Positions 1 to 18,288 of a stretch of 64,000 nt of DNA are shown piece by piece; positions within the stretch are counted from its first letter, which is position 1, and every line of letters begins with the position of its first letter. The notes under the pieces were generated by a model, which saw only the letters and a list, made by a program, of their open reading frames with translations, made no database searches and had not been told where the DNA came from. The DNA comes from Candidatus Shapirobacteria bacterium. GTDB taxonomy: Bacteria > Patescibacteriota > Microgenomatia > UBA12405. The position numbers and the translations under genes were made by a program. The stretch is taken from assembly GCA_041659325.1 (NCBI GenBank), contig JBAZYN010000001.1:67342-131341 (forward strand), written 5' to 3'.

Positions 1-93
1 TAACTTATAAAATTCCCGATAGTGGAGGGTCAATAAAGATCGAGGGCGAAGTCCACCTCACTGGGCCGGAATCAGGAGGCCGTTGGCAATAAT

Positions 94-816
94 ATGAAAA
101 ATAAAAAGATATTAATAATCGCTTCGATCGTGACATTAGGTGCCATCAGCATTGCTACCGGTTGGAGGTTGTATCAAACCAGAAAAGATTCTCAGGCCCC
201 TATTGAGCCAAAAGCCACTAGTCCGCAATGTACCCTGGAGTTTACTGTTTCTCCGCCCACTCCAACTCCCACCGTAACCTCTGGTCCCTCTCCAACTCCG
301 GGTCCGACCTCTACCAATACTCCCACGCCCACCAAAACTCCAATCCCTACCAAAACCCCAATCCCTACCAAGACTCCTACTCCCACCATAACTCCTACCG
401 GTACCCTCACCCCAACCATGACTCCTTCCGCAACGGCTATTCCCACCCCAACAGAAACATCTTCTCCAACCCCAACCATGACACTCACCAATACTCCCAC
501 TCCCACCAAAACCCCGGTTCCCACCGCCACACCGGTTCTTGTTTGCGGATCACCCTGTGGTGAAAATATAACCGGAATCTGCCCAGAGAACCATTCCTGT
601 TATAACGGCAAATGTGTTCTCCTTGCCTGTATGGAAGAATCCGCTGAATGCAATACCAGTAATTGTAAAATTATTCCTACCTTCGCCCCGACTGATACCA
701 AAAGCCCGACTCCAACCAGAATAACACTTCCCAATGCTGGCGTTGATTTCCCTGTCAAAGCTCTCGGACTTGTCGGTGTTATCATAACACTGTTAGGATT
801 TTTGATATTACTTTAA
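94..816 (+). CDS. Secreted or anchored protein. N-terminal signal/TM, long Pro/Thr-rich linker ([14 protein letters not shown]...), Cys-rich C-terminal module, C-terminal LPNAG motif plus hydrophobic tail.
   Basis: ORF track. AGGAGG at 74-79 upstream of the ATG. Composition read directly (about 40% P+T over residues 45-160, ten Cys in residues 150-195). Confidence 0.6.
331..384 (+). repeat. Three tandem copies of an 18-bp unit (accaaaactccaatccct / accaaaaccccaatccct / accaagactcctactccc) encoding [18 protein letters not shown], inside a longer PT-codon low-complexity tract of roughly 250-530.
   Basis: Read directly in the sequence. Confidence 0.7.
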
Positions 817-828
817 ATTAAATAAAAA

Positions 829-1746
829 ATGAAATTAGGCGTTTTTTCAATTATCGAGGCGATGCGCCCCAATCAGTGGATCAAAAATTTAAATCTTTTT
901 GCTGCCGCCATTTTCAATGGTCAGCTACTCGATCCGGTGATTATGACAAAAAGTATTCTGGCTTTTTTTTCTTTTTGTTTCCTTTCCTCCTCCTCCTATT
1001 TAATCAATGATTTGGTCGATGTGGAAAAAGACCGACTTCATCCGGTAAAAAAGATGCGACCTCTCGCCAGAGGTGTCGTTTCAAAATCTACAGCCATATT
1101 TACTTCGATTTTTCTTTTGGTCCTCGGTTTAACAATATCTGGTTCCATCAATTCCACTTTTTTTTGGTTGTCATTATTTTTCATCATAATGCAATATTTA
1201 TATTCATTTACTATAAAGAAAAAAGCGGTATTGGACATAATCGGAATTGCTCTTTTCTTTATCATCAGAGCTTATGCCGGGGAAGTAGCTACGGGTTATC
1301 ATCTGCCAGTCTGGGTAATGCTATCGGTAATTTTCTTGTCATTATTTATAGCCAGCGGTAAACGCCGCAGTGAATTATCCAATAGCGGATCAAAAACACG
1401 TCTATCCTTGGAAAGATACGGTAAAACATTATTAAACTTTTATACAACCATGTTTGCGGTTTGTACCTTGATTACCTACGCCATGTTTACCTTTTTTGAA
1501 GAGCCAATCAGCTTTGAAGGTCCGATCCACCAATTCTTGCTGGAAAACTTCCCCAAAGCTCTATCTAGAAAATGGTACATGATTACTCTGGCTCCGGTTA
1601 TTTTTGGAATAATGCGGTATGGTCAAATAATTTTTGAAATGCAGGAGGGAGAAAGGCCGGAGCGTGTTATCGCCACCGATATTCCGCTAATTCTATCCGT
1701 TCTTACTTGGGGTTTGATGATGATTGCTATCGTCTATGTCCTCTAA
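829..1746 (+). CDS. UbiA-superfamily polyprenyl-phosphate phosphoribosyltransferase, like decaprenyl-phosphate 5-phosphoribosyltransferase (DPPR synthase).
   Basis: Multi-TM. Motifs RPNQWIKN (N-terminus), NDLVDVEKDRLHPVKKMRPLARGVV (NDxxDxxxD...RPxxxG), IRAYAGEVATG, ASGKRR and IMRYG. Recalled from memory, these match the Rv3806c-type family motif for motif. Confidence 0.7.
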   Translation: MKLGVFSIIEAMRPNQWIKNLNLFAAAIFNGQLLDPVIMTKSILAFFSFCFLSSSSYLINDLVDVEKDRLHPVKKMRPLARGVVSKSTAIFTSIFLLVLGLTISGSINSTFFWLSLFFIIMQYLYSFTIKKKAVLDIIGIALFFIIRAYAGEVATGYHLPVWVMLSVIFLSLFIASGKRRSELSNSGSKTRLSLERYGKTLLNFYTTMFAVCTLITYAMFTFFEEPISFEGPIHQFLLENFPKALSRKWYMITLAPVIFGIMRYGQIIFEMQEGERPERVIATDIPLILSVLTWGLMMIAIVYVL

Positions 1747-3310
1747 ATTTTTGGTCGTTTTGATCTTTCTTCTTTTTTTCACCAGATTCATAAAGTTAGA
1801 TTGGGGAAACGGCTATTATTTTCATCCGGACGAAAATAACATGGCCTCAGCTATTTCCCGCCTGTCACCGGGTAGTCTCGATCCAAAATTTTATGCCTAT
1901 GGTCAATTTCCCCTCTTTCTGGCTTTTTACTCTTTTCGATTTTACTCACTCTTACTTTGGAATATTCTACCCGACCACTTAACCTTTAGCCAGTCGATAC
2001 TCACCCTTAGATTTTGGTCTGCAATATTTTCCACTCTCTCTGTTTTGGTCTTCTATCTTATCTCCAAAAAAATTACTCCCAAAAAATATTTTTCAGAGAT
2101 ATTTGCAATTCTTTTAATATTTTCTCCCGGACTAATCCAGTTTTCTCACTTTGGAACCACCGAGTCGATATTGATCTTTGTGCTCGCGATAAACACCCTG
2201 TTAGGTTTGTTGATTCTTGATTCAAAAGGTATTCGGTTGGTTAATTTAGTTATTGCCTCGTCGCTTATTAACGCCGCTGGTTTAGCTACAAAAATTACTT
2301 CTGTAATATTGATCGGGCCGGTATTGCTTGCCCTCCTCCTTTTGTTTATCAGGAGTAGAAATAAAGTCCCAATCATATTACTTACCCAATTATTCACAAT
2401 TATTACCATTGTTTTATATGCCGCTTTTTCTCCCTTCAATATTGTTTCGAGAAAGGAATTTCTATCGACTATGGGTTATGAAACCGCAGTCGCTACCGGA
2501 AAAATCCCTGTATTTTATACCAGTCAATTTATTGGTACTAGACCATATATCTATCAATTTATCCACATCTTCCCATATGTAAACGGCCTGCCCGTTTTTC
2601 TTATAGCGATTTTGGGCATAATTCTTTTTATAAAAAAATTCCCAAAACCAATCGATCAAAAATATAAATGGTTAATCGTGCTCGCCACGCCGCTGATTTA
2701 TTTCCTTTATGTTGGCCAACTCTATACCAAGTGGACCCGTTTCATGTCACCGATATTCTTTATTTTTCCGCTTCTTACTGCGTATTTCATTTCTTCTCTC
2801 AGGCCAAACGGGCTAAAAATAATTTTCACCCTAATTTGTGTTATCCCCGGCTTCGTTTTTCTTTACAGATATCTCCAAAAAGACATTAGGGTTACGGCTT
2901 CGGAATGGGTGGACAAAAACATCCCCGAGAAATCAATTGTTCTTTCAGAAGCCGGAAATGTTATTAATTTTCCCATGGGGACAACAAGGGGATATGATAT
3001 AAATAATTTTGATTTCTATAAACTTGACGAAGACCCTAATCTTCCACCCAAACTTACAGACCTAGTCTCTGATGCCGATTATATCTTTGTCCCCTCAAGG
3101 CGGATCTTCAAAAATCAATATGGCCCCCGCTTCCCTCATAGCGATAAATATTATCGCCGGCTTTTTTCAGGCGCACTGGGTTTCAGGTTAATAAAAACCT
3201 TTCCGGCAGACTTAGTGATTTTAAATCCTGAAAATGCCGAAGAAACCTGGACTGTCTTTGATCGGCCAGTAATTAGGATTTTTCAAAAAGTAAATGGCCA
3301 AGCTCCATAA
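1736..3310 (+). CDS. Polytopic membrane glycosyltransferase, GT-C fold (GT39/PMT/ArnT-like), paralog 1.
   Basis: About 12 predicted TM segments; FHPDE acidic motif in the first extracytoplasmic loop; large C-terminal soluble domain. The ORF track starts at TTG 1724; ATG 1736 is preferred. Overlaps the upstream gene, suggesting translational coupling. Confidence 0.55.
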   Translation: MSSKFLVVLIFLLFFTRFIKLDWGNGYYFHPDENNMASAISRLSPGSLDPKFYAYGQFPLFLAFYSFRFYSLLLWNILPDHLTFSQSILTLRFWSAIFSTLSVLVFYLISKKITPKKYFSEIFAILLIFSPGLIQFSHFGTTESILIFVLAINTLLGLLILDSKGIRLVNLVIASSLINAAGLATKITSVILIGPVLLALLLLFIRSRNKVPIILLTQLFTIITIVLYAAFSPFNIVSRKEFLSTMGYETAVATGKIPVFYTSQFIGTRPYIYQFIHIFPYVNGLPVFLIAILGIILFIKKFPKPIDQKYKWLIVLATPLIYFLYVGQLYTKWTRFMSPIFFIFPLLTAYFISSLRPNGLKIIFTLICVIPGFVFLYRYLQKDIRVTASEWVDKNIPEKSIVLSEAGNVINFPMGTTRGYDINNFDFYKLDEDPNLPPKLTDLVSDADYIFVPSRRIFKNQYGPRFPHSDKYYRRLFSGALGFRLIKTFPADLVILNPENAEETWTVFDRPVIRIFQKVNGQAP

Positions 3311-4985
3311 AAATTATCTCATTGTAATTATTTGCGTTGCTGGATTATTGAGGCTTGTTGGCCTAAATTGGGATCAGGGCAACCATCTTCACCCCGACGA
3401 ACGAATGATCACTATGGTTGTTGGCCGGATTAGCATGCCTCCGATAGATCCGGTACTAAAAATTGGGCAAAAACTAAATATATTATTTTCTCCGGACTCA
3501 ACCTTAAACCCCAAATTTTTTGCCTACGGATCCTTTCCCATATATCTTCTCAAATTTTCTGCCCACCTTCTTACCCCGATATTTCCCAAAATCTCTTCTT
3601 ATGATCAAATTAATTTACTCGGAAGAGCAATCTCTGCCGTCTTTGATACTCTTGTCATTATTTTCATTTATCGTCTTGGCCTTTTGATTTTCAAGAGTTC
3701 CTCAAAAAGTCTCTTCGCCTCGGTAATTTACGGCTTATCTATCTTTCCTATCCAGTTGTCCCATTTCTATGCAGTCGACACGATTTTATCTTTTTTTATC
3801 CTATTTACCATTTATCAACTAATTTGTTACTTCCGGCAACAACGATTTATAAATCTTTTGTTCGCCGGCGTTGGTTTCGGATTATCTTTAGCCACCAAAG
3901 TAAGTGCCATCGTCTTGGTAGTACCTTTTGCCACCTGCTTTACCCTATTGACCTGGCGTTTTATTAACTCCAAAAAAATACTAAAAACACTAAAATTACT
4001 TCTATTAGTCTCCGCCATTACGATTATTGTTTTTTTTATTTTCCAACCATTTGCCTTAACGGATTTTTCTACTTTTAAACGACAAATACTCGAGCAACAG
4101 GCCATGACCAAAGATGCCTTTGTCTTCCCTTATACACTTCAATATGTCAACACAATTCCTTATCTTTATCCGCTAAAAAATATCTTTCTTTGGGGTCTTG
4201 GCCCGGTAATTGGCCTTATGGCTACAATTGGTTTTTTTGCCCTAATAAAAAAATTATCTCGAGGGCTATTTTCTCCCGGCAGCCAAAATTCACCAGGAGC
4301 AACCATTATTTTATTTTCCTTTTTTATAACGTATTTCATAATAGTAGGTGGTTTTGCCGTAAAATGGATGCGTTATTGTCTGCCGCTGTATCCGATATTT
4401 GCCTTATTTGCTGCCAACACTATCGGAGATATAAAGTCAAAATACCTAAAGACTACTATTTTATTAATCCATTTGTGTCTTGTTTTTGCCTTTATGAGTA
4501 TTTATCAAGTTCCCAATACCCGGGTTACCGCCACCAAATGGATTAATAAAAACATTTCTCCAGGGTCAACTATTCTAGTGGAACACTGGGACGATCCACT
4601 GCCTTTAGGTTATCTCAATAAAAATATTACTCAACTTTCTTTACCGCTTTACGATTCCGATCTTGAACCCAACAAGTGGGTTAACATCAACAAAATGTTA
4701 GATACCGGTGACTACATTATTCTTTCGAGTAATCGTCTCTATACTCCCCTCCAAAAACTAACCAATTGTGATCAACTTCCTCCCGGTCGGTGTTATTCCA
4801 AAACAGCTACATATTATCAAGACCTTTTTTCCGGGAAACTTGGATATACCAAAGTAGCTGAGTTTACCAATTACCCCAAACTTTTTGGAATTAGCATCGA
4901 CGATCAGTCAGCCGACGAATCTTTTACTGTCTACGACCACCCAAAAGTAATGATTTATAAGAATACTCATGTTCAAAAAAATTAA
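3294..4985 (+). CDS. Polytopic membrane glycosyltransferase, GT-C fold (GT39/PMT/ArnT-like), paralog 2.
   Basis: Same architecture as 1736-3310 (LHPDE loop motif, multi-TM, C-terminal domain). Its start overlaps the upstream stop. Confidence 0.55.
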   Translation: MAKLHKNYLIVIICVAGLLRLVGLNWDQGNHLHPDERMITMVVGRISMPPIDPVLKIGQKLNILFSPDSTLNPKFFAYGSFPIYLLKFSAHLLTPIFPKISSYDQINLLGRAISAVFDTLVIIFIYRLGLLIFKSSSKSLFASVIYGLSIFPIQLSHFYAVDTILSFFILFTIYQLICYFRQQRFINLLFAGVGFGLSLATKVSAIVLVVPFATCFTLLTWRFINSKKILKTLKLLLLVSAITIIVFFIFQPFALTDFSTFKRQILEQQAMTKDAFVFPYTLQYVNTIPYLYPLKNIFLWGLGPVIGLMATIGFFALIKKLSRGLFSPGSQNSPGATIILFSFFITYFIIVGGFAVKWMRYCLPLYPIFALFAANTIGDIKSKYLKTTILLIHLCLVFAFMSIYQVPNTRVTATKWINKNISPGSTILVEHWDDPLPLGYLNKNITQLSLPLYDSDLEPNKWVNINKMLDTGDYIILSSNRLYTPLQKLTNCDQLPPGRCYSKTATYYQDLFSGKLGYTKVAEFTNYPKLFGISIDDQSADESFTVYDHPKVMIYKNTHVQKN

Positions 4986-6480
4986 TCCTCTTGTTGGAAT
5001 TTTGATATTTTTTTTGGTAGTTTGTTTCTATCGTCTGGACTCAATACCCGGAGAATGGTTTGGTGATGTTTCCATTGTCAATAGTTATGTTTCTCAAATT
5101 ATTACCGGGCAGTGGCCATTTACTTTTATCACTAGTCAAGGACCTCTCTACTACTATCTTATCGCTCCCATCATTTATATCTTCGGGGTTAGCTACCTGA
5201 ATTATAAAATATGCTCTGTACTTACCGGATTAATGGGCATAGTATTCGTTTATCTGTTTGTTAAAACTCTAAGCAATAGGTCAGCCGGATTAATTGCCGC
5301 CTTCATTACCGCCTCTTCTTTTTGGTACTTAGTTTGGTGCCGCCTAGGCTACAATATTATCGGCCCTGTTCTTACTGCCATCACTTTATTTTTGTTTTTT
5401 AATTATCAAAAAAATAAAAATACGAAATTTCTTTACTCGGTGCTATTTATTAGTTGCCTTGGTCTTATCAATTATGCCGGAACATTCTTCCTCCCACTGG
5501 CAATTATTACCATTTTCTTAGTAAATGCCATCTTTATATCAAAAACGAGCATTCGTTCAATTTTTACTACACTTATTATTTTTTTTATTGCTCTCGTTCC
5601 CATGGTTATCATACTTAGTCAGAACTTAGATAGTCTATCCCCTGGTTATATGGGTGAAAAATTATTTCAAACTAAACAATACTCAACCTCGGAAAATATT
5701 AATCGTCTGGCCACCAACTTACGACGCACCTTAGGTATGTTTCATTTTGAAGGTGACGTTGTTTTTCGTTGGAATGTCTCAAAAAGTCCTCATCTGGACA
5801 TTGTAAGCGGAATTTTTTTAATCATTGGCTTAATTTGTTCGTTAATTAAAAAAAAAGCTACAACTTTATTATTACTAATAAGCGCCTTTATTTTAATTTT
5901 ACCTTCAATATATCCAGGCCACCCTTCGGCGGAAGTGCCCAGTAGCCCCAGGACCCAGGCTATTATTCCCATAATAATATACTTAACTAGTTTCGGAGTT
6001 TATTACTTGACGGAATTTACAAAAAAGTTATATCCGTCAGCTACAAAAATATTACTTTTCCTCATTCTTTCTAGTATTTCATTTTTAAACTTAACCAAAT
6101 ACTTTATCGACTACCCGAAGGGTTTGCCTAACGACAATACTCCATTTGGAAAAATCATCGCCCAAGATATTGACAAGTTGCCTCCCGGAGTCGATGTATA
6201 TCTTGCCGATATCGGTTGGGGTGATTGGGAACAGCCGGAACCAGACGGAATTTTTTATGCCATAAACAACAATAAAGGAAGAGAAAATATTCTCTCGGGT
6301 ACAATAAGTGATTGTAGTCAAATTAATCAATTAAAAAATAGTTATATAATTTCAAATCCACTTAGTGAAACAAAATTAGAAATATTCCAACAATGTTTTT
6401 CTCAAATCGAAACAGAAACACACACCGTAAACAATCAACTTGTTTATAAAAGCCTGTTTATAAAATCAAATCCTGACTAA
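4969..6480 (+). CDS. Polytopic membrane protein, probably a third GT-C-type glycosyltransferase.
   Basis: Ten or more hydrophobic segments, YYYLIAP-type N-terminal segment, soluble C-terminal domain; 4-nt overlap with the upstream gene. Confidence 0.45.
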   Translation: MFKKINPLVGILIFFLVVCFYRLDSIPGEWFGDVSIVNSYVSQIITGQWPFTFITSQGPLYYYLIAPIIYIFGVSYLNYKICSVLTGLMGIVFVYLFVKTLSNRSAGLIAAFITASSFWYLVWCRLGYNIIGPVLTAITLFLFFNYQKNKNTKFLYSVLFISCLGLINYAGTFFLPLAIITIFLVNAIFISKTSIRSIFTTLIIFFIALVPMVIILSQNLDSLSPGYMGEKLFQTKQYSTSENINRLATNLRRTLGMFHFEGDVVFRWNVSKSPHLDIVSGIFLIIGLICSLIKKKATTLLLLISAFILILPSIYPGHPSAEVPSSPRTQAIIPIIIYLTSFGVYYLTEFTKKLYPSATKILLFLILSSISFLNLTKYFIDYPKGLPNDNTPFGKIIAQDIDKLPPGVDVYLADIGWGDWEQPEPDGIFYAINNNKGRENILSGTISDCSQINQLKNSYIISNPLSETKLEIFQQCFSQIETETHTVNNQLVYKSLFIKSNPD

Positions 6481-6509
6481 ATACATGTTATCATCTAAAT
6501 ACTTTTTTT

Positions 6510-7571
6510 ATGAATAAAACATTGAATCCGGCAGTAACCATTATTTCCACCTCCCCCGAAACAGTCCTAAAAGACTATCAAAAACTCTTTTCCAATTTTC
6601 CCAAACCCAAAAATGTTCCCACTATTATTAAACTAAATTTATCATGGACAAAATTTTACCCTGCCGTATCCACTCCCCCCTGGCATTTCGAAGCTGCCTT
6701 ACAGTGGCTAATTAATTCCGGCGTCTCTCCTAAAAATATTATCCCCGTCGAAAATCGAACCGTAGTAACCAAGGTTAAGGTTGGTGCCAAAAATCATGGA
6801 TGGACAAAAATTGCCAAAAAGTATGGAGTAAAAATCCATTATCTTACCGACGAAAAGTATGTTTCTTTTCATCCCAAATCAAAAATGTTGGTTTTGAACG
6901 AAATTTTCCCGGACGGAATTCTTTTACCAAAAATAATTATGGGTAAACCGTTGATTACTCTTTGCACCCTCAAATCCCATGTCTTTACCACCATTACCGG
7001 CTCAGTCAAAAATTATTTTGGTATGCTCAACACCAACCGCCACTTTTGTCATCGGCGTATTCACCAGGCCATTATCGATTTACTTCAGGTCCAAAAAGAA
7101 CTTCATCCGCAAATCTACGCTGTTATGGACGGGTCTGTTTTAGGTTTTGGGCCCGGGCCTCGCGCTATGGAGTGGGAAGCGTCTAATTTGATTTTAGGTA
7201 GTCTCGACGAAATTGCCCTGGATGCTACTGCCGCCAGAATTATTGGTTTCGACCCACACACCATCGAATTTCTTCAGCTTGGACAAAAATTAAAATTAGG
7301 GGAGATCGATCCAGTTTATAGCCAAAAATTACCAAATTTCCATCACAGCATCAAAAAAGACACCTTTGCTTCAAGAGGTCAAAAATTTATTTATCATCGT
7401 TTACCTGAGTGGATCGAAAGACTACTTCTCCGAAGTTTTATTGCCCCCTGGTCCTTCGCCGCCTCTAACTTATATCATGATGGTTATTGGTATAATTTTG
7501 TCGGTCGTTCTCGATTGAATCGCTATTTATCATCTGGTTGGGGGAAGCTATTTAAATCTTACCAAAAATAG
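6510..7571 (+). CDS. DUF362-like protein of unknown function.
   Basis: IIKLNLSW...(VKPNL-like)...LPKIIMGKPLITLCTLKSHVFTTITGSVKNYFGMLN resembles the DUF362 core (LPKLKTH..G.TGa.KN.fG). Assigned from memory only. Confidence 0.4.
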   Translation: MNKTLNPAVTIISTSPETVLKDYQKLFSNFPKPKNVPTIIKLNLSWTKFYPAVSTPPWHFEAALQWLINSGVSPKNIIPVENRTVVTKVKVGAKNHGWTKIAKKYGVKIHYLTDEKYVSFHPKSKMLVLNEIFPDGILLPKIIMGKPLITLCTLKSHVFTTITGSVKNYFGMLNTNRHFCHRRIHQAIIDLLQVQKELHPQIYAVMDGSVLGFGPGPRAMEWEASNLILGSLDEIALDATAARIIGFDPHTIEFLQLGQKLKLGEIDPVYSQKLPNFHHSIKKDTFASRGQKFIYHRLPEWIERLLLRSFIAPWSFAASNLYHDGYWYNFVGRSRLNRYLSSGWGKLFKSYQK

Positions 7572-7573
7572 TC

Positions 7574-8131
7574 ATGAATCTTCTTTTCTGGCAGACAAAA
7601 GCCAATTTTTATAAACTTTTTTCCTCATCGTCAGTCGGCAATCTCTTTTTAGTTTATTCAAATTACGCTACTTGGGTTTTTTTATTATTTCCCTCCTTTA
7701 TTCTGGTAAAGAGTAACCCCAATCTTTTTTGGCAGCTTTTTTTTGCTACCATTGCCAGCGAGATAATCGAAAAGGTACTAAAGAAAAAAAACTTTTGGAA
7801 AAGACCAGCCTTTACCAACAATGATAATATTCCCAAGGGGTTAATAAAATCTTGGTATCTTACCGGCTCATTTCCCTCCGGGCATACTATTAAAGCTACT
7901 TTTTTCTTGCTGCTTCTTATCCAGCACCAACTTTTTTTCCCGGTTTTTCTAATTATTATTATTCCTCTGATATTTTTTCGAATTCTTATTGGTTTTCATT
8001 ATCCCATCGACGTCTTGGGCGGCGTCATCATTGGAGCCATTATCTGGTTTTTTGTTCGACTGATTATTATGCCTCTTTTTTTAATTAATATCGTCCAGAC
8101 TATCTTTAGTTTTGTATTTTTTATAAAATAA
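7574..8131 (+). CDS. PAP2-family membrane phosphatase (phosphatidic acid / polyprenyl-phosphate phosphatase type).
   Basis: The three PAP2 motifs in order: KKNFWKRPAF (KxxxxxxRP), PSGHT (PSGH), FRILIGFHYPIDV (SRxxxxxHxxxD-like). Multi-TM. Confidence 0.65.
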   Translation: MNLLFWQTKANFYKLFSSSSVGNLFLVYSNYATWVFLLFPSFILVKSNPNLFWQLFFATIASEIIEKVLKKKNFWKRPAFTNNDNIPKGLIKSWYLTGSFPSGHTIKATFFLLLLIQHQLFFPVFLIIIIPLIFFRILIGFHYPIDVLGGVIIGAIIWFFVRLIIMPLFLINIVQTIFSFVFFIK

Positions 8132-8138
8132 TACACAT

Positions 8139-10238
8139 ATGATTGCAGACCTAAAATATATTATCTTGTGGTGGTTAACTATTTTTCTTCTGGGACTCGT
8201 TTCTTTACCCCTAATATTTTCAATTTTTAAAAACTTTTGGGACAAGGGGTATGCCTTTTGCAAAACATTATCGCTTATAGCTCTAACCTATCTGGTTTTG
8301 GTTTTAAGCATATTCAAGTTTCTTCCGTTTACCAACCAGTCCCTGCTAACCATTATTTCCATTGGTCTCCTGGCAGACTATTTGTATTTAAAAAATAGAA
8401 ACAACCGCGATACCTTTGTCGCCCTGGTTAAAAGCAATTACAAAACTTTTATCGCCGAGGAGCTAATTTTTTTGTTAATTTTAACCCTGTGGTCTTTTGT
8501 CAGAGGTTTTGCTCCCGATATCGAGGGCTTAGAAAAATTTATGGATTGGGGATTTGTCAATTCTGCCCTAAGAAGCACTTATTTACCACCCGCCGACATG
8601 TGGTTTTCCGGAGAATACATCAATTATTACTATTTTGGCCACCTGATGTCGGCAGTTCTCACCAAGCTGTCCTACATTCCCTCTACCATCACCTACAACC
8701 TGTCTATAGCCTCAATTTGTGCCCTGACATTCATCAGCAGTTTTAGTCTTTCTTCCAATTTGGTTTATAACTTTTTTAAAAAAAATCTTTCCTTTAGATC
8801 CGTCTTGGTTGCTGGCATGATTTCTGGTCTACTGTTAACTTTCGGCGGAAATTTCCATTCCGTCTACAAAATCTCCAAAATAAACAAAAGCCAAAATGAT
8901 GGAGTCTTAACCCTGACTCTAGAGGCGATCAAAAAAGCTGCCGATTCTTATTGGTATCCCGATGCCACCAGATTTATTGGCTACGATCCCGAAACCAAAG
9001 ACAAAACCATTCACGAATTTCCTATTTATAGCTATGTCGTGGCGGATCTTCACGGTCATATGAGCGATATCCCTACGGTTCTATTTTTCATGGCCTTCAT
9101 TTTTGCCATGTCCATGGAAATTATTGCTTTCCCGTATCTCAAACTAATCGTTCCCTGTGGTCTGATTTTGTCCATATGTTATATGACCAACGCCTGGGAT
9201 TTTGCCGTCTACGGCCTGCTTTTTGGTATTTTTTATCTTTTAAAAAATTGTAAGGAAACCGGTTTGTGGAGCGGGATAGTCAAAACTTTTAGTAGCGGTA
9301 TTGGTGTCATCCTCTTCTGGTATCTATTTACTCTGCCATTTTCTTTAAACTTTATTCCCATGGCCGAAGGGCTCAAGCTGTCCGATGCCAGGTCACCCTT
9401 ATTTCAACTCTTTATTCTTTACGGAGGTTTTTGGATAATAACTGCTCCGCTAATGGCTTTTTATCTTTTCCGCAAAAATGAAAAATCCAAAAAAATAGAC
9501 ATACCACCTGTCGACATTTTTATTATCGCCCTGGTGGTTACTGCAACTATTTTGGTAATTATTCCCGAAATTGGCTATATAAAAGATATCTATATTTATG
9601 AACATAGACGATCAAATACCATGTTCAAATTGGTATATCAGGCTTTTATGATGTACTCTTTGGCTTCCGGATTCGCCCTCATCAGAATCGGTCAAATTAA
9701 ATCCTCCTGGAAAGTTTTGTACAAAATTGCCTTCTTAATCGTATTTATAATTCACATGATATACCCGTTTTTTGCTGTCCGATCTTATTATGGTCTAAAG
9801 GAATACAAAGGTCTTTGGGGCCTGACATTTCTTAAAAATGCTAACCCCGATAATTTAGAGGCCGTTAATTGGATTAACAAAAATATCAAAGGTCAGCCGG
9901 TTATGGTTGAAGCAGTCGGTGATAGCTACACCATGTTCAACCAAATCTCCATGGCCACCGGTCTCCCTACTATCGAGGGGTGGATCGTCCATGAGTGGTT
10001 GTGGCGGGGTGGATACGAAAAACCGTCACTCCGGCAGACAGATGTCCAAAAACTATATGAAGGGGAAACTCTGGATGAAGTCAGATCAGTCTTACAAAAA
10101 TATAGTGTCGATTACATTTTTGTCGGCGACAAGGAATACGAAAAATACCCAAAAATTAATGAAAAGAACTTCACGGATATAGGGGCAACTATCGTCGCTC
10201 AGTTTGGTAAAACAAAAATATACAAAGTTCTCAAGTAA
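8139..10238 (+). CDS. Large (699 aa) polytopic membrane protein with an extracytoplasmic C-terminal domain; possibly a GT-C / DUF2298-like glycosyltransferase.
   Basis: About 14 hydrophobic segments; YINYYYFGH motif after an early loop; soluble C-terminal domain of roughly 200 aa. Confidence 0.45.
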   Translation: MIADLKYIILWWLTIFLLGLVSLPLIFSIFKNFWDKGYAFCKTLSLIALTYLVLVLSIFKFLPFTNQSLLTIISIGLLADYLYLKNRNNRDTFVALVKSNYKTFIAEELIFLLILTLWSFVRGFAPDIEGLEKFMDWGFVNSALRSTYLPPADMWFSGEYINYYYFGHLMSAVLTKLSYIPSTITYNLSIASICALTFISSFSLSSNLVYNFFKKNLSFRSVLVAGMISGLLLTFGGNFHSVYKISKINKSQNDGVLTLTLEAIKKAADSYWYPDATRFIGYDPETKDKTIHEFPIYSYVVADLHGHMSDIPTVLFFMAFIFAMSMEIIAFPYLKLIVPCGLILSICYMTNAWDFAVYGLLFGIFYLLKNCKETGLWSGIVKTFSSGIGVILFWYLFTLPFSLNFIPMAEGLKLSDARSPLFQLFILYGGFWIITAPLMAFYLFRKNEKSKKIDIPPVDIFIIALVVTATILVIIPEIGYIKDIYIYEHRRSNTMFKLVYQAFMMYSLASGFALIRIGQIKSSWKVLYKIAFLIVFIIHMIYPFFAVRSYYGLKEYKGLWGLTFLKNANPDNLEAVNWINKNIKGQPVMVEAVGDSYTMFNQISMATGLPTIEGWIVHEWLWRGGYEKPSLRQTDVQKLYEGETLDEVRSVLQKYSVDYIFVGDKEYEKYPKINEKNFTDIGATIVAQFGKTKIYKVLK

Positions 10239-10291
10239 TCTCAATTTGACTTGTTTATATTTATCGGTGTTTCTTCTATAGTTGTATATCC

Positions 10292-12172
10292 ATGAATGAC
10301 ATATTATGCGGACTAAATCCGGCCCAAAAAGAAGCGGTGACTTATTCGGGCAGTCCGCTTTTATTGCTGGCCGGGGCCGGTTCCGGCAAAACCAGGGTGT
10401 TAACCCATCGTGCCGCCTACCTTATCAAAACTTCGGCCGCCCAAACATCAGAGATACTCCTGCTAACTTTTACCAACAAAGCTGCAGACGAGATGAAGCA
10501 ACGGATGGGCCGTTTAATTGGTTCAAAAAACAATGGATTATTCGCCGGCACTTTTCATTCATTTTGTTGTCGGGTATTGAGAGCAGACGGCTTACCGGTT
10601 GGTGTACCGCCTAATTTCAATATCTACGATACAGGCGATCAGGAAGATACCATCAGAAAGATCCTGCATGAGATGAATTTAACCCCAAAGGAGTTTAAAC
10701 CGGGCAATGTTCTCTACTACATTGGAGCTGCAAAAAATGATTTTCTCTCTCCAAAAGACATGGAGCTACAATCCTCCGGTTTTTGGCAAACTTACGCCGC
10801 AAAAATCTACGCCAAATATCAAAAAATATTATTCGAATCACACGCCCTTGATTTCGACGACCTCCTTTTCAAAACCGTCGAGCTTTTTTCCGGGCAACCC
10901 TCAATTCTTGAAAAATACCAGGACAAATACAAGTTTATCCTGGTCGACGAATACCAGGATACAAATCAAATTCAATATCTTTTGGCAAAATTATTAGCCC
11001 AAAAGTATCAACAAATCACTGCCGTGGGTGATGCATCACAGGCCATCTACGGCTGGCGTGGTGCTAATTACAAAAATCTGGTCAATTTTACTGTTGATTT
11101 CAAAGATACGAAAGTTATTAACTTAGAACAAAATTACCGTTCCACAAAAATTATCTTAGAGGCCGCTAATTCAATTATTTCCAAAAATAATTCCCACCCG
11201 GTCTTAAAGCTTTTTACCGAAAAAAAGTCATCAGACAAAATAAAACTATTTACCGCAGACTCAGAGATCAGCGAAGCAGAATATGTTTCCTCAAAAATTA
11301 AATTCATTTACGATAACTACAAAATTCCCTACAAAAATATTGCTGTTCTTTATCGCATGAATGCCCAGTCTCGGGTGTTAGAGGAAACTTTTATCAAGTC
11401 CAACATCCCCTACGTTTTAGTGGGAGGTCTTCGCTTCTACGACAGAGCCGAGGTCAAAGATATTATCGCCATGCTCCGTTTTGCCAATGATCAGGCCGAT
11501 ATTATATCTCTTGATCGGGTTGAAAAAGCCCTGGGCAAAAGAAGGTTGGAAACCTTTAAGGCTCTTCTCCGGTCCATTGATCTTCAGTCGGCAAATTCAC
11601 TTCAGATTTTCGAATCCCTGGTTATCGGGTCTGATTACTTAAAACATTTTGATCCAAAAGATGAAGAAGATCAAAAAAGAATCGAAAATATTAAAGAACT
11701 AAAATCAGTCGCCGCCTCTTTTCCGAAACTTACTACCTTTCTGGAAAATGTTGCCCTGGTCCAAAACGAATATAGTCAGCAGGAAAAAAGCAAGAAATCC
11801 AAAGAGAATAGGGAAGGGGTGAGACTAATGACTCTTCATGGCTCAAAAGGTTTAGAGTTCGAAGTCGTCTTTCTGGTAGGTTTTGAAGAGGGGATTCTTC
11901 CTCATTCAAATTGCATGCTCGACGACTCACAGATAGAGGAGGAGCGCCGTCTTTGTTATGTGGGGATTACCCGGGCCAAGGATTATCTTCATATTTCCTA
12001 CGCCACCAGACGCTTATATTTCGGCAAGAGTAGCCTAAACGAACCAAGCCGATTTTTAGGTGAAATCCCCCAAAAACTAATAGAAATCGAAGAATCAGGC
12101 GAAATTACCCGTGACTATCGGCACCCAAAAAGCGATAGCGAAGAATTTATCTATGACCCTGATATATACTAA
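10292..12172 (+). CDS. UvrD/PcrA/Rep-family ATP-dependent DNA helicase (626 aa).
   Basis: LNPAQKEAV, Walker A GAGSGKTRVLTHR, DEYQDTNQ (motif II), YRST, TLHGSKGLEFEVVFL, VGITRAK. Confidence 0.85.
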   Translation: MNDILCGLNPAQKEAVTYSGSPLLLLAGAGSGKTRVLTHRAAYLIKTSAAQTSEILLLTFTNKAADEMKQRMGRLIGSKNNGLFAGTFHSFCCRVLRADGLPVGVPPNFNIYDTGDQEDTIRKILHEMNLTPKEFKPGNVLYYIGAAKNDFLSPKDMELQSSGFWQTYAAKIYAKYQKILFESHALDFDDLLFKTVELFSGQPSILEKYQDKYKFILVDEYQDTNQIQYLLAKLLAQKYQQITAVGDASQAIYGWRGANYKNLVNFTVDFKDTKVINLEQNYRSTKIILEAANSIISKNNSHPVLKLFTEKKSSDKIKLFTADSEISEAEYVSSKIKFIYDNYKIPYKNIAVLYRMNAQSRVLEETFIKSNIPYVLVGGLRFYDRAEVKDIIAMLRFANDQADIISLDRVEKALGKRRLETFKALLRSIDLQSANSLQIFESLVIGSDYLKHFDPKDEEDQKRIENIKELKSVAASFPKLTTFLENVALVQNEYSQQEKSKKSKENREGVRLMTLHGSKGLEFEVVFLVGFEEGILPHSNCMLDDSQIEEERRLCYVGITRAKDYLHISYATRRLYFGKSSLNEPSRFLGEIPQKLIEIEESGEITRDYRHPKSDSEEFIYDPDIY

Positions 12173-12181
12173 ACATAAGTT

Positions 12182-13219
12182 ATGATCACCAGAATTTTAT
12201 ACAATCAGGAAAAAGATCAATACAACAAACTGGTTAAACATCCGGTCCAAAGTTGGGAATGGGGAGACTTCCAAATTTCTCAAGGCCACAAGGTATATAG
12301 GTTGGGGGTTTTTGACAATCAAAAAATGATCTCTGCTTATAGTATCAGTTTTCACACTATTCCCAAAACTCTATTCTCAGTCGGAACAGTCCTGAAAGGA
12401 CCAAAAATAGACCAAGAAATGGTTAACAATCTTAAAAAAATCGCCACTGATGAAAATGCCATATTTGTAAAACTTGAACCGGATTTTATCCAAAAAAAAT
12501 TCACCAGCGAGGGCAGTGAAACAGTCGCCTCTATGGACACTCGCTTCCCAAATCTTGTTGTATCCCCAAAGGTAGCTTTCTATCCGTATAGCTTCATGGT
12601 TGATCTGACAAAAACTGAGGATGCGCTCTTATATCAAATGCACTCCAAAACCCGATACAATATAAAAATTGCCAATAGACATGGTGTAAAGATAGAAGAA
12701 AACAGTACTGATGCCGGATTTGAAACATATCTTGAGTTGCTTTTTGACACCACCGCCCGCCAAGGGTTTTATCTTCATAGCCAACAGTATCATCGGGATC
12801 TTTGGAAACTTCTCAAACCAACCGGAATCCCTCACATATTTTTGGCTTCATATCAGGGGGAGACATTAAGTGCTTTTATGCTTTTTATCTACAAGGATAA
12901 TTTGTTTTATCCCTACGGCGCTTCTCTTGATCAATACCGGGAGGTCATGGCCCCGACACTACTGATGTGGGAATCAATAAAGTTTGGAAAAAGTATGGGT
13001 CTAAAAAATTTTGACATGTGGGGAAGTCTTGGCCCGGACGCAAAAGAGGGAGATCAGGGGTTTGGTTTCCATCGGTTCAAACAGGGCTTTGGCGGTCAAC
13101 TCGTTCAATTTGCCGGAACTTATGATTTAGTTATCAATCAGCCTCTATATACTATTTATAATCTTGCCGACAAATATCGGTGGAAATTTCTCCGTTTAAA
13201 ATCAAAGTTTATAAGATAA
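12182..13219 (+). CDS. FemAB/FemX-family peptidoglycan interpeptide-bridge aminoacyltransferase.
   Basis: N-terminal HPVQSWEWGDF... and C-terminal HRFKQGFGGQLVQFAGTYDLVIN are typical of the FemABX family. Confidence 0.65.
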   Translation: MITRILYNQEKDQYNKLVKHPVQSWEWGDFQISQGHKVYRLGVFDNQKMISAYSISFHTIPKTLFSVGTVLKGPKIDQEMVNNLKKIATDENAIFVKLEPDFIQKKFTSEGSETVASMDTRFPNLVVSPKVAFYPYSFMVDLTKTEDALLYQMHSKTRYNIKIANRHGVKIEENSTDAGFETYLELLFDTTARQGFYLHSQQYHRDLWKLLKPTGIPHIFLASYQGETLSAFMLFIYKDNLFYPYGASLDQYREVMAPTLLMWESIKFGKSMGLKNFDMWGSLGPDAKEGDQGFGFHRFKQGFGGQLVQFAGTYDLVINQPLYTIYNLADKYRWKFLRLKSKFIR

Positions 13220-15132: not shown

Positions 15133-16566
15133 ATGAAAACTACCCCCATAATCGGCCTTGAAGCCCACGTCGAACTAAAAACTAAATCAAAAATGTTTTG
15201 TGGCTGCGATGACAACCATTTTCATGTTGACCCCAATACTCACACTTGTCCGGTATGTCTTGGTCTCCCGGGGGCTCTCCCGGTTCCAAATGGAACCGCC
15301 ATCGATTGGTGTCTTAAGCTCGGCCTGGCTCTTGGCTGCACCGTCAACGAACATTCTTTTTTTGAGCGAAAAAATTACTTCTATCCGGATCTTTCAAAGG
15401 GTTATCAAATCTCCCAATACTTACAGCCTTTTACTGTAAAAGGTACCCTAAATTTAGACGGCCACGAAATCAGAATCAACCGGGCTCACCTGGAAGAAGA
15501 CACCGGCAAGTCAGTTCATGTAAACGGAACCACCTTGCTCGATTTCAATCGCTCAGGCGTTCCGTTGGTTGAGGTTGTCTCCGAGCCGGACATAACTTCC
15601 CCCCAAGAAGCCAAAAAATACTTAGTTAAATTGCAGCAAATTATTCGGTATTTAGGAATCTCCGATGCGGACATTGAAAAGGGGAGTATGCGCTGCGAGC
15701 CAACCGTCAATTTGAAAATCGAAGAAAATAGCGAGACTTACTATACCCCTCTTGTAGAAATTAAAAACGTCGCCTCCTTAACCGGCGTTCAGACTGCCAT
15801 TCAGTTTGAAATTGATCGTCAACAAAAACAATTTTTTGAAGATCATATTGTAAAGAATCCTTCTAACAAGACCACTAGAGGTTGGGACGCTGATAAAAAC
15901 CAAACTTTTTTGCAACGCGAAAAAGAGGGTTCTTCCGACTATCGTTATTTTCCTGAGCCCGATATTCCGCCCTTTGAGTTTACCGATGAAGAAATTGAAA
16001 AAATCAAATCCACCATTCCCGAACTTCCGGATCAAAAAGTTATCAAATACAAAAGCTACGGTCTTTCCGATTATGACGCCAATTTAATATCTCAGGATTC
16101 ACTTATGGCCTCGGCCTACGAAAAAGCAGTTGGACAAAACCCACTGTCGGAATTTGCCAAATTTGTTGCCAACCTATTTTCCGGATCCATTAAAACTCTT
16201 TTAAACGATAGTCAAACAGAAATCGATATTCAGCAAATTAACCCTGACCACTTTCAAAAATTATTTGACAAAAAATCTGAATTATCTTCAAACTCTATTA
16301 AGCAATTAATACTTGATAGTTATCAAACCGGTCAAGACCCGCTCTTTGCCGCCCAAAAACAAAATCTTTTTCAGGTTTCCGATACCGGAAAAATTGAAGA
16401 ATTAGCCAAAAAAGTTTTGGCCGACAACCCAAAAGCAGTTGAGGATTATAAAAAAAATCCCAACAGTATTGGTTTTCTCGTTGGCCAGTTAATGAAACTA
16501 TCTATGGGCTCCGCCAATCCCCAAATGGCAAAAGAAATTTTAGAAAAATTACTTAATAGTGACTGA
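15133..16566 (+). CDS. gatB: Glu/Asp-tRNA amidotransferase subunit B.
   Basis: Full-length GatB/GatE catalytic and tail domains (HVELKTKSKMFCGC..., C-terminal LVGQLMKLSMGSANPQ). Confidence 0.9.
   Translation: MKTTPIIGLEAHVELKTKSKMFCGCDDNHFHVDPNTHTCPVCLGLPGALPVPNGTAIDWCLKLGLALGCTVNEHSFFERKNYFYPDLSKGYQISQYLQPFTVKGTLNLDGHEIRINRAHLEEDTGKSVHVNGTTLLDFNRSGVPLVEVVSEPDITSPQEAKKYLVKLQQIIRYLGISDADIEKGSMRCEPTVNLKIEENSETYYTPLVEIKNVASLTGVQTAIQFEIDRQQKQFFEDHIVKNPSNKTTRGWDADKNQTFLQREKEGSSDYRYFPEPDIPPFEFTDEEIEKIKSTIPELPDQKVIKYKSYGLSDYDANLISQDSLMASAYEKAVGQNPLSEFAKFVANLFSGSIKTLLNDSQTEIDIQQINPDHFQKLFDKKSELSSNSIKQLILDSYQTGQDPLFAAQKQNLFQVSDTGKIEELAKKVLADNPKAVEDYKKNPNSIGFLVGQLMKLSMGSANPQMAKEILEKLLNSD
16534..16554 (+). 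repeat. Direct repeat copy 1 (gaaattttagaaaaattactt), inside the last codons of gatB.
   Basis: Exact 21/21 identity with 17824-17844; contains the palindrome aatttt-aga-aaaatt. Confidence 0.85.
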
Positions 16567-17815: not shown

Positions 17816-17823
17816 TAAAAACG

Positions 17824-17844
17824 GAAATTTTAGAAAAATTACTT
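17824..17844 (+). repeat. Direct repeat copy 2 (gaaattttagaaaaattactt), non-coding, just after the stop of the 418-aa ORF.
   Basis: Exact 21/21 identity with 16534-16554. Confidence 0.85.
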
Positions 17845-18159: not shown

Positions 18160-18288
18160 GAGCGCATTATAGCATGATAATATAACTTTATTGTGTTACT
18201 TTCACCCTCCTCTCGCAGATACCCGTCTTTGCCAAAATGGCCTGTGGGTAAAACCCGGCAACCCTTCCTCATCGCCCCTCGCCTCTGA

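Follow-up and report, generated by a model that had tools for sequence, protein, structure and literature searches.

The use of lipid-linked pentofuranose donors is known from mycobacteria, Pseudomonas and Citrobacter. The mycobacterial decaprenyl-phospho-arabinose (DPA) pathway employs a UbiA-type phosphoribosyltransferase, a PAP2-family phosphatase encoded in the same cluster, the DprE1/DprE2 pair and several GT-C enzymes of the Emb/Aft type, which use the lipid-linked pentose on the outer side of the membrane. The group IV pilin system of Pseudomonas aeruginosa (PsPA7_6245-6251 plus TfpW) contains homologs of the PAP2 phosphatase and of decaprenyl-phosphate phosphoribosyltransferase (DPPRS), together with DprE1/DprE2 and a GtrA-like flippase. 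TfpW is a GT-C enzyme using lipid-linked arabinofuranose to O-glycosylate Ser/Thr of the pilin, and tfpW adjoins the acceptor pilin gene pilA (bioRxiv 10.1101/2020.04.19.049825). In Citrobacter youngae O1/O2, the cluster encodes a polyprenyl-phosphate 5-phosphoribosyltransferase (PPPRS) fused to a HAD phosphatase (ORF15), a MATE flippase (ORF14), the GT136 enzyme ORF12 and an optional epimerase, ORF13, which is a GalE-like short-chain dehydrogenase/reductase (SDR) (Kelly et al. 2024, PMC11127046). There, undecaprenyl-phospho-ribofuranose is used directly by the GT-C enzyme; presence or absence of ORF13 switches the side chain between xylofuranose and ribofuranose (PMC11127046). Here we describe a 64,000-nucleotide stretch of DNA from Candidatus Shapirobacteria (contig JBAZYN010000001.1, hereafter the window), in which the genes at 94-10238 would, as we judge rather probable, form a conserved operon by which the cell envelope is glycosylated with pentofuranose, outside the cytoplasm, through a lipid-linked donor. 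No paper linking bacteria of the Candidate Phyla Radiation (CPR) to a lipid-linked pentose pathway was found in the literature.

The eight open reading frames (ORFs) that an earlier note on this DNA had described were all confirmed on the + strand (Table 1), and the Pfam and NCBIfam matches agree with the make-up it gave, namely a UbiA-type enzyme, GT-C proteins, a DUF362 protein, a PAP2-family phosphatase and a DUF2298 protein. They are preceded by a secreted protein rich in Pro and Thr (PT-rich) with an LPxxG motif. The note had also rightly taken the organism for a CPR-like one. The spacing is operon-like: a gap of 13 nt separates the PT-rich gene from the UbiA gene, followed by overlaps of 23, 17 and 17 nt and then gaps of 29, 2 and 7 nt. 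A scan of positions 1-12500 for promoters and terminators found sites no more frequent than in shuffled sequence, and did not inform the operon limits. In Pfam and NCBIfam scans, the UbiA protein is the sole lipid-linked-sugar synthase of the operon. The portion of the genome inspected comprises the 64-kb window plus 8 kb.

Like the mycobacterial DPA cluster, the locus encodes a predicted UbiA-type phosphoribosyltransferase with the same active-site residues, a PAP2 protein and several GT-C proteins. In contrast to it, neither a DprE1-type (FAD_binding_4) nor a DprE2-type protein occurs among the window ORFs of at least 120 aa, as the earlier note had said, and the pair was likewise not found in the Shapirobacteria loci compared. 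The GT-C proteins are closest by sequence to PMT/ArnT, with one DUF2298 member, rather than to Emb/Aft. Moreover, a DUF362 protein of LarA fold, not part of the mycobacterial pathway, is present, and the CPR host lacks mycolata-type wall genes. With Citrobacter the locus shares a ribofuranose donor that is perhaps used directly, an optional enzyme in a variable position that may change the pentose, a phosphatase that may be of HAD type in relatives, and an ArnT/PMT-like protein as the closest solved GT-C relative. The Citrobacter HAD phosphatase is fused to the synthase, whereas the PAP2 protein here is separate; the MATE flippase has no counterpart in the operon, which is without MATE, SMR or GtrA genes; the tailoring candidate is an SDR there and DUF362 here; and the setting is an O antigen there and a monoderm CPR bacterium here. 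Citrobacter has one GT-C enzyme, of family GT136, and the operon has four. The P. aeruginosa system has the polyprenyl-phospho-pentose, a GT-C enzyme as well as PAP2 and DPPRS homologs in common with the locus. It has a GT-C gene directly beside the acceptor gene, and the candidate acceptor here is placed likewise, protein glycosylation being only a prediction in our case. Different from the window, P. aeruginosa possesses DprE1/DprE2 and a GtrA-like flippase, and its acceptor is a pilin rather than a sortase-type PT-rich protein. The central idea of the earlier note is therefore sound, although not new in kind; its description of an apparently uncharacterised system overstated the novelty, since work on Citrobacter youngae had demonstrated in 2024 that polyprenyl-phospho-ribose can be used directly. 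The locus differs in its CPR lineage, its GT-C set (PMT_2-like paralogs plus DUF2298), its LarA-fold DUF362, and the lack of DprE1/DprE2 in the window and of a flippase gene in the operon.

The UbiA protein carries the strongest evidence. Every motif quoted for it in the earlier note is present in the translation, and its placement in the DPPRS branch, not with heme O or menaquinone enzymes, holds. The top three NCBIfam matches are decaprenyl-phosphate phosphoribosyltransferase equivalogs (1.4e-59, 2.3e-53 and 9.3e-50), while models of heme O synthase, 4-hydroxybenzoate, MqnP, chlorophyll and GGGP-type enzymes reach only 1e-14 to 1e-3, so that the DPPRS model beats any other UbiA subfamily by 45 orders of magnitude. 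Among solved structures, the best UbiA match is Rv3806c of M. tuberculosis (8J8J, E=8.8e-38), the next one being at 7e-12. The residues contacting Mg2+, pyrophosphate, ribose and the 5-phosphate of phosphoribosyl pyrophosphate (PRPP) have been defined from the Rv3806c structure (PMC10994848). In the HMMER alignment, all ten PRPP/Mg residues (R22, K28, Y70, N73, D77, K87, R90, Q135, Y138 and K143) are kept, as R13, K19, Y57, N60, D64, K74, R77, Q122, Y125 and K130 of the window protein. Tyr157 is replaced by Phe, a substitution found also in some mycobacteria (PMC10994848), and Lys208 by Leu. K28 and Y70 of Rv3806c contact the 5-phosphate, and such phosphoribose-binding sites are not common to other UbiA enzymes (PMC10994848); the conservation of these two ligands is thus the strongest sequence argument for a PRPP-using enzyme. 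In the Asp-rich NDxxDxxxD loop, N60, D61, D64 and D68 are invariant in 19 homologs. We infer that the protein is a PPPRS which makes polyprenyl-phospho-ribose-5-phosphate from PRPP. It is 70-90% identical across more than 100 clusters (at 90% identity) of Shapiro- and Woesebacteria, which fits a housekeeping role, and GT-C genes accompany it in all lineages examined. Its homologs already bear the name decaprenyl-phosphate phosphoribosyltransferase in some public records, and that of 4-hydroxybenzoate polyprenyltransferase in others.

The three proteins encoded next belong to the GT-C class, as the earlier note had proposed; Pfam and profile matches agree on this. Paralogs 1 and 2 are full-length homologs of each other (hhalign probability 100%, E=9e-109, 516 columns). 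Paralog 2 matches PMT_2 and also PMT (1.7e-5, 25.0 bits, above the cut-off of 22.7), and paralog 1 matches PMT below it (5e-4, 20.1 bits). The HPDE motif of both lies about 10 residues past the first transmembrane (TM) helix, in the first extracytoplasmic loop; its D35 and E36 do not vary in an alignment of 21 sequences of the two paralogs, and paralog 1 keeps HPDE or NPDE across loci. The profile of paralogs 1 and 2 matches yeast Pmt1 (1.2e-7), Pmt4 (1e-5) and Pmt2 (2.7e-4) as well as ArnT (0.022), and matched no Emb/Aft protein. No MIR domain was found by Pfam in any of the GT-C proteins, and for paralogs 1 and 2 the description PMT_2/GT-C-A-like fits best, rather than membership in GT39. 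The N-terminal ~210 aa of GT-C protein 3 are homologous to them (hhalign probability 98.6-99%). At the HPDE position, however, it reads WFGDV, with the Asp retained and the Glu lost; the three HPDE-bearing proteins of the earlier note are therefore two, with FHPDE and LHPDE. Protein 3 is present in only part of the related loci, where it forms a variable cassette with DUF362, and it resembles the GT-C protein downstream of UbiA-DUF362 pairs in distant loci. Its match to TIGR03663/Agl23 is weak (E 0.0026; 16.9 bits, the cut-off being 126). For dolichol-linked sugars, Agl23 is reported to be a flippase-associated protein (PMC11182771), and from this one match a role of protein 3 as an Agl23-type flippase is a possibility. 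In archaea and Chloroflexi, which have a TIGR03662 and TIGR03663 pair, DUF2298 is likewise encoded near a PMT_2-like GT-C protein, but protein 3 is not a TIGR03663 member.

Related loci were collected by a scan with a UbiA alignment, one genome per species, which gave 80 loci (L numbers below); ORFs were called by a simple procedure of our own and compared by jackhmmer seeded with the window proteins. About 20 independent genomes show the same gene order, which is thus not due to chance. In Shapiro- and Woesebacteria it runs MurJ, PilN-like, PilO-like, ~430-aa surface protein, PT-rich protein, UbiA, GT-C 1, GT-C 2, a variable slot, PAP2, DUF2298, UvrD, FemAB and GatCAB, the locus being flanked by MurJ and FemAB. 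The slot contains GT-C protein 3 and/or DUF362 in the window, L003, L016, L020, L064, L088-L091 and L101. It contains GT4 with or without a methyltransferase and GalE-like SDR in L004, L005, L008-L011, L013, L015 and L046 (the GalE-like SDR epimerase in L004 and L005), and is empty in L002 and L012. A second contig with the same genes (L001) extends upstream of the window and encodes TatD, S20, MurJ, PilN-like and PilO-like proteins as well as two further surface proteins with PT-rich segments; the MurJ/MatE-family (MOP) gene, about 5 kb upstream, may encode the lipid II flippase. A PT-rich secreted LPxxG protein is encoded directly upstream of UbiA in 13 of the 19 informative loci, mostly with gaps of 1-23 nt and once of 72 nt. 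In Levybacteria and relatives (~35 loci; L019, L021, L024-L063, e.g. L026 5621-10945) the order is TatD, a membrane GT2 (498 aa), a GT-C protein (PMT_2), a 117-aa protein with no Pfam match, a WecA/MraY-like protein (Glycos_transf_4) and UbiA, which looks like a pathway for a polymer primed on polyprenyl diphosphate and decorated with pentose. In Gottesmanbacteria, a gene of the FAD amine-oxidase family precedes UbiA and four or five GT-C genes follow it.

The PAP2 protein has intact motifs (K-x6-RP at 70-78, PSGH at 101-104 and R-x5-H-x3-D at 136-146). In 20 genome loci, the position preceding DUF2298 is occupied by PAP2 in 14, by a HAD-like protein in five (L018, L020 and L085-L087) and by both in L010, which weakens the idea of a strict mutual exclusion. 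The HAD-like protein is soluble, of about 180-200 aa and without TM helix, with an N-terminal DxDx(V/I), an (S/T) motif II and a DDD motif; it has no significant Pfam match and weak ones to HAD-type LNS2 and 5'-nucleotidase models. Two 5-phosphatase types are known for polyprenyl-phospho-ribose-5-phosphate, PAP2 (Rv3807c, PsPA7_6245) and, as the PRP domain of ORF15 in Citrobacter, HAD (PMC11127046; bioRxiv 10.1101/2020.04.19.049825). Since a soluble cytoplasmic HAD protein is unable to replace an outward-facing polyprenyl-diphosphate phosphatase, the swap favours a 5-phosphatase role, and the PAP2 protein is a candidate for the role of Rv3807c. A hydropathy window analysis gave no reliable number of TM helices for PAP2, and an argument on the membrane face of its active site was dropped.

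Since sequence searches of the PDB returned no useful match for either DUF362 or DUF2298, fold comparison was used for both. The DUF362 protein adopts the fold of LarA (lactate racemase), and its only structural relatives are racemases and epimerases. DUF362 and DUF2088 (LarA) stand in one Pfam clan, CL0471, and DUF362 served as an outgroup in 2024 (PMC11770544). LarA inverts a C-OH centre via transient hydride transfer to a nickel-pincer nucleotide (NPN), and this chemical logic equals that of the mycobacterial DprE1/DprE2 pair. DUF362 is nevertheless a different Pfam family from the LarA superfamily, shorter, with a C-terminal extension of its own and no detectable sequence similarity; LarA acts on a hydroxy acid, whereas the presumed substrate of DUF362 is a lipid-linked sugar. 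Neither the single sequence nor a 33-sequence profile matched LarA among all PDB sequences even at E <=10. The spacing H157-x9-K167 equals that of H174-x9-K184 in LarA, with more His residues after it, a resemblance that is numerical only. The protein is soluble and has no signal peptide. Polar residues conserved among 81 sequences include K41, N43, E81, N82, K155, H157, K167, R177, H178, H181, H185, E197, H199, D207, R218 and D238, and a basic, aromatic-rich C-terminal extension is conserved as well; these features suggest a metal- or cofactor-binding active site and a possible binding to the membrane surface.

The 33 close relatives of DUF362 (52-83% identity, in CPR-type loci) are encoded after the GT-C genes and before HAD/PAP2 and DUF2298. 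Among 43 distant metagenomic relatives (38-43% identity), UbiA is directly adjacent in 22, and many of the others lie on short contigs. The PPPRS residue set is present in all UbiA proteins of these distant pairs except for the Q135 equivalent, which varies in many, and K143, which is Arg in L152. The pairs are typically followed by a GT-C protein and an SMR-type transporter. A typical case, L165, runs BacA, cyclase, UbiA, DUF362, GT-C (weak PMT_2), SMR-type small transporter, GFO/IDH/MocA oxidoreductase and xylose-isomerase-like TIM barrel, by its gene content a complete synthase, flippase and GT-C system plus DUF362; an Aminicenantes genome (L076) has the same UbiA-DUF362 pair. The LarA fold and the adjacency in these 22 loci together point to an unrecognised partner of the phosphoribosyltransferase, which would extend well beyond CPR, and to a candidate enzyme for tailoring the head group. 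Because DUF362 sits in the variable slot and is dispensable in relatives that keep UbiA and PAP2, a tailoring, epimerase-type role is preferred for this locus over that of an obligatory phosphatase, in line with an optional enzyme diversifying the donor.

The DUF2298 protein is a clear member of TIGR03662 (456.9 bits against a cut-off of 300), a family for which no functional description was found in the literature. Its profile gave nothing useful against all PDB sequences. In the model, whose most conserved loops are of low confidence, the multi-TM core superposes on GT-C enzymes of solved structure, TM1 is followed by an acidic residue, and the C-terminal globular domain is AglB-like. Pmt4, ALG12 and ArnT, all using monophosphate donors, outscore the oligosaccharyltransferases (OSTs) in this comparison; the likeness to AftA, AftD and AftB is in fold only and less close than that to Pmt4 or ArnT. 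DUF2298 would accordingly be, on the modelled fold, the fourth GT-C glycosyltransferase of the locus. In L016, PAP2 (residues 45-208) and DUF2298 (222-937) form a single ORF at 15370-18186, which suggests that the two work as a unit, although an assembly or frameshift artefact could produce it. Some DUF2298 homologs (P0301, P0303, P0305 and P0334) carry C-terminal LysM (PF01476) domains, a hint of contact with peptidoglycan.

We propose that the UbiA-type enzyme would move 5-phosphoribose from PRPP to polyprenyl phosphate at the cytoplasmic face, and that PAP2, or the HAD-like phosphatase in relatives, would strip the 5-phosphate to yield polyprenyl-phospho-ribofuranose. Where present, DUF362 would act on the head group, be it phosphoribosyl or ribosyl, and would most likely turn part of the pool into another pentofuranose epimer, the job of DprE1/DprE2 or of the Citrobacter SDR ORF13. 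The donor would then be flipped, with the MurJ/MOP protein encoded 5 kb upstream, or else a GT-C-fold protein of the locus, as the candidate, and the four GT-C-fold enzymes (the PMT-like paralogs 1 and 2, protein 3 and DUF2298) would transfer the pentose to envelope acceptors. The earlier note had considered that polyprenyl-phospho-ribose itself may be the donor. That view overlooks a racemase/epimerase-fold DUF362 that is genetically tied to this UbiA subfamily.

A number of points weigh against this reading. What is proposed on the enzymatic steps, on which sugar is involved, on the flippase and on the acceptor is all deduced from homology and gene linkage. With 201.6 bits, UbiA lies just below the equivalog threshold of NF008978 (207), a score at which NCBI would give it no automatic name, and further under the cut-offs of the other two DPPRS models. 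Pfam and NCBIfam detected no MATE, SMR or GtrA flippase gene within 94-10238, and the GT-C proteins could use a hexose donor from a GT2 enzyme elsewhere in the genome. The PAP2 protein is only generically similar to the one adjoining UbiA in an actinobacterium (L084, in the position of Rv3807c), and its best NCBIfam matches, PgpB and undecaprenyl-diphosphatases, are all far under cut-off, so that its substrate is not fixed by sequence alone. No sequence match to solved LarA proteins relates the NPN-binding and catalytic residues R75, H108, H174, K184 and H200 of LarA to DUF362, and the genes larB, larC and larE are not in the window. The distant UbiA-DUF362 loci contain almost no other phosphatase (PAP2 and HAD once each), which fits a phosphatase role of DUF362 equally well. 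The Shapirobacteria loci are close relatives, and the 13 adjacencies of PT-rich and UbiA genes are therefore not 13 independent observations. Finally, the links to LCP, LysM, WecA-like, GT2, GT4 and methyltransferase genes in relatives favour a polysaccharide acceptor.

The nature of the acceptor is where the proposal meets its best competitor. The PT-rich protein has a signal/anchor helix at its N-terminus and contains a PT linker as well as a Cys-rich module; at its C-terminus, LPNAG is followed by a hydrophobic segment of 20 residues and no charged tail, a putative sortase-type sorting signal. The repeat noted in it earlier is real, an 18-nt tandem array at 311-395 within the linker, and the C-terminus is conserved in the 13 loci as P(S/T)PTRIxLPx(A/S)Gx(D/E/N)FP plus a hydrophobic stretch. 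The repeat gives long ORFs in several frames (window 192-530 (-) and 228-563 (+)), and the public gene calls of Logan contig L001 miss the PT-rich gene (7965-8687) and have antisense ORFs at 8063-8401 and 8471-8656 (-) instead; the conserved signal anchor and LPxxG end identify the + strand ORF as the real gene. A sortase gene is present in the window at 45011-45745. The two further PT-rich envelope proteins of the earlier note are not PT-repeat proteins: that at 49039-49683 has a Pro/Ser-rich N-terminus before a single TM helix and a C-terminal pacifastin-like Cys domain (PF05375, 1.6e-6), whose family is known chiefly for protease inhibitors of insects, and that at 57832-59253 is a LytR_C-domain protein with short PT stretches only. 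The PT-rich neighbour supports a protein acceptor, as the note had suggested, circumstantially. We rate the two kinds of acceptor about equal, with a slight preference in this operon for the Pro/Thr stalks of the upstream sortase-type proteins; with four GT-C enzymes, both could be served.

The competitor accepts the same donor pathway and assigns the pentose to a wall- or lipid-linked glycopolymer (arabinogalactan-, lipoglycan- or teichoic-acid-like), the PT-rich genes lying nearby through a regional synteny of envelope genes; we consider this a plausible account, if one of somewhat less than even chance. Polysaccharides are the acceptors of all mycobacterial and most other known users of the donor. 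The Levybacteria-type loci place the orthologous UbiA in the gene set of a polyprenyl-diphosphate-primed polymer, the variable slot holds GT4, methyltransferase and SDR genes in many Shapirobacteria, and an LCP ligase gene adjoins DUF2298 in L085, L087, L097, L108, L113, L116 and L120. The LysM domains on some DUF2298 homologs, the flanking MurJ and FemAB genes and the RmlBCD genes in the window are of the same tendency. In contrast, genes for a priming transferase, a GT2 or a GT4 are missing from the operon itself (94-10238), the nearest relatives of paralogs 1 and 2 are protein O-mannosyltransferases, a PT-rich LPxxG gene lies as near to UbiA as described above, and proteins can be acceptors, as in Pseudomonas.

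A second alternative concerns DUF362, which may not be an epimerase at all but a non-homologous 5-phosphatase or an obligatory helper of the phosphoribosyltransferase, the donor being plain ribofuranose. The invariant UbiA-DUF362 pair of the 22 distant loci, with PAP2 and HAD found once each, speaks for it, and so does the fact that known PPPRS enzymes are always accompanied by a phosphatase, of differing structural families (PMC11127046). The His-rich site (H157, H178, H181, H185 and H199, with Asp, Glu, Arg and Lys) would be compatible with a metal hydrolase, the NPN-cofactor genes are not in the window, and the distant loci have other candidates for sugar modification, namely the GFO/IDH/MocA and xylose-isomerase-like proteins. 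However, in CPR loci DUF362 always occurs alongside PAP2 or HAD and is dispensable in L002 and L012; the slot it occupies is taken in other loci by a GalE-like SDR, and racemases and epimerases are its only structural relatives. We regard this alternative as unlikely, and retain the tailoring role for DUF362. A bolder form of the epimerase proposal, for which our confidence is low, makes the DUF362 subfamily a core PPPRS partner across many phyla: a LarA-fold and probably metal-dependent protein, whose ancestral pocket for a 5-phosphoribosyl cofactor would now bind the lipid-linked 5-phosphoribosyl head group and epimerise it. One protein would then stand in for DprE1/DprE2, and lipid-linked arabino- or xylofuranose would be reached by a new route; in CPR, DUF2298, as a new GT-C family, and the PMT-like enzymes would O-pentosylate the Pro/Thr stalks of sortase-anchored proteins.

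It is also conceivable, and in our opinion quite improbable, that PAP2 and DUF2298 form a separate module, in which DUF2298 would act like an OST or ligase, taking a glycan en bloc from its polyprenyl-diphosphate carrier, and the polyprenyl diphosphate set free would be recycled by PAP2, the UbiA product feeding the PMT-like GT-C enzymes only. The fusion of the two in L016 and the best NCBIfam matches of PAP2 are in line with this; in L085-L087 a DUF362-phosphatase-DUF2298 trio occurs with no UbiA within 8 kb, and that of L086 adjoins UppS and a polyprenyl synthase. Those PAP2 matches lie far under cut-off, however, the HAD-like protein that replaces PAP2 in five loci would find polyprenyl diphosphate at the outer face out of reach, and the fold of DUF2298 scores higher with the monophosphate-donor enzymes than with OSTs. 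The least tenable view, with hardly any weight left to it, takes UbiA for one of the common aromatic prenyltransferases (heme O, menaquinone or ubiquinone) or for a lipid synthase of archaeal type, in a cluster unrelated to pentoses. Although the Pfam UbiA match is generic and homologs are often annotated as 4-hydroxybenzoate polyprenyltransferase, the NCBIfam scores led us to reject a heme O, quinone or lipid prenyltransferase (1e-8 to 1e-14 for heme O, UbiA, MqnP and GGGP-type models against 1e-59 for DPPRS), the residues binding the 5-phosphate of the phosphoribose are kept, and the linkage to GT-C genes holds in each lineage examined.

CPR bacteria (Patescibacteria) make up a large share of bacterial diversity, and to our knowledge almost nothing is known of their envelope chemistry. 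The strong conservation of UbiA and its setting among MurJ, pilus-like, sortase-substrate and FemAB genes suggest that pentofuranose glycans are a basic surface feature of Shapiro- and Woesebacteria, possibly with a part in host attachment. Two DUF families would be given roles, DUF2298 as a GT-C glycosyltransferase and DUF362 as a partner of the phosphoribosyltransferase. DprE1 is a validated tuberculosis drug target; should DUF362 prove to act as an epimerase, the very step targeted there would have found a new enzymatic solution.

Table 1. Genes of the window operon and selected genes of related loci; blank cells, no entry.
Feature	Locus	Position	Strand	Length	Basis
PT-rich surface protein	window	94-816	+	240 aa	translation; no Pfam match
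UbiA, polyprenyl-phosphate 5-phosphoribosyltransferase type (PPPRS/DPPRS)	window	829-1746	+	305 aa	Pfam UbiA 3e-23; NCBIfam NF008978
GT-C paralog 1, PMT/ArnT-like, FHPDE	window	1724-3310	+	528 aa	Pfam PMT sub-threshold
GT-C paralog 2, PMT_2, LHPDE	window	3294-4985	+	563 aa	Pfam PMT_2 5.2e-11
GT-C protein 3, PMT_2, WFGDV	window	4969-6480	+	503 aa	Pfam PMT_2 2.6e-11
DUF362 protein, LarA fold	window	6510-7571	+	353 aa	Pfam DUF362; fold comparison
PAP2-family phosphatase	window	7574-8131	+	185 aa	Pfam PAP2 4.6e-15
DUF2298 / TIGR03662 'YYY' membrane protein	window	8139-10238	+	699 aa	Pfam, NCBIfam
HAD-like, between DUF362 and DUF2298	L020	9968-10504	-		
HAD-like, between DUF362 and DUF2298	L085	9057-9626			
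HAD-like, between DUF362 and DUF2298	L086	6604-7158			
HAD-like, between DUF362 and DUF2298	L087	9055-9648	-		
HAD-like, between DUF362 and DUF2298	L018				
HAD-like, in locus having PAP2 too	L010	16025-16606	-		
FAD amine-oxidase	L018	8688-9965			
FAD amine-oxidase	L020	3442-4668			
FAD amine-oxidase	L085	2841-4136			
FAD amine-oxidase	L086	4278-5540			
FAD amine-oxidase	L022, L023, L029, L035, L105-L108, L113-L115				

Several observations were made on the surface genes around the operon. The ~430-aa surface protein (Surf425; L001 5121-6398 and homologs) gives weak fn3/Big-like matches and has a PT stalk and an end of the form xP(K/V/T)TG plus hydrophobic residues. Its gene always follows those of the PilN-like and PilO-like proteins; the protein may belong to a surface appendage specific to CPR, and is the second candidate for glycosylation. 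The 699-aa protein at 42915-45014, which precedes the sortase, has a marginal Pfam match to Baseplate_J-like (2e-4, just at cut-off); it was considered as a sortase substrate and rejected, having no sorting signal. RmlB, RmlC and RmlD of the dTDP-rhamnose pathway are encoded in a row at 59257-61681, directly after the LytR_C-domain membrane protein, which suggests that this organism also has envelope glycans with rhamnose.

In Gottesmanbacteria and other CPR, a gene of the FAD amine-oxidase/NAD_binding_8 type (~410-435 aa) is often found directly upstream of UbiA or of a GT-C gene; its product could serve as redox partner in the modification of sugars or lipids. It stands in the place of UbiA in L085 and L086, and in L087 a radical SAM/SPASM gene precedes DUF362. 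In Clostridium spp. (L066, L067, L070 and L082), UbiA with PPPRS-type residues is followed by a 428-aa protein with no Pfam match, a 118-aa SMR/EamA-type transporter and a class I/II aminotransferase; SMR-type genes are thus present both here and in the distant UbiA-DUF362 loci, and these genes would make a possible three-component pentofuranose system in cultured, genetically tractable organisms. Lastly, many MAG records titled 'uncultured Gammaproteobacteria bacterium' (L005, L006, L009, L010, L015, L024, L028 and others) carry a Microgenomates-type locus, the UbiA proteins being 66-75% identical in the Shapirobacteria-type loci L005-L015 among them, and their names look wrong.

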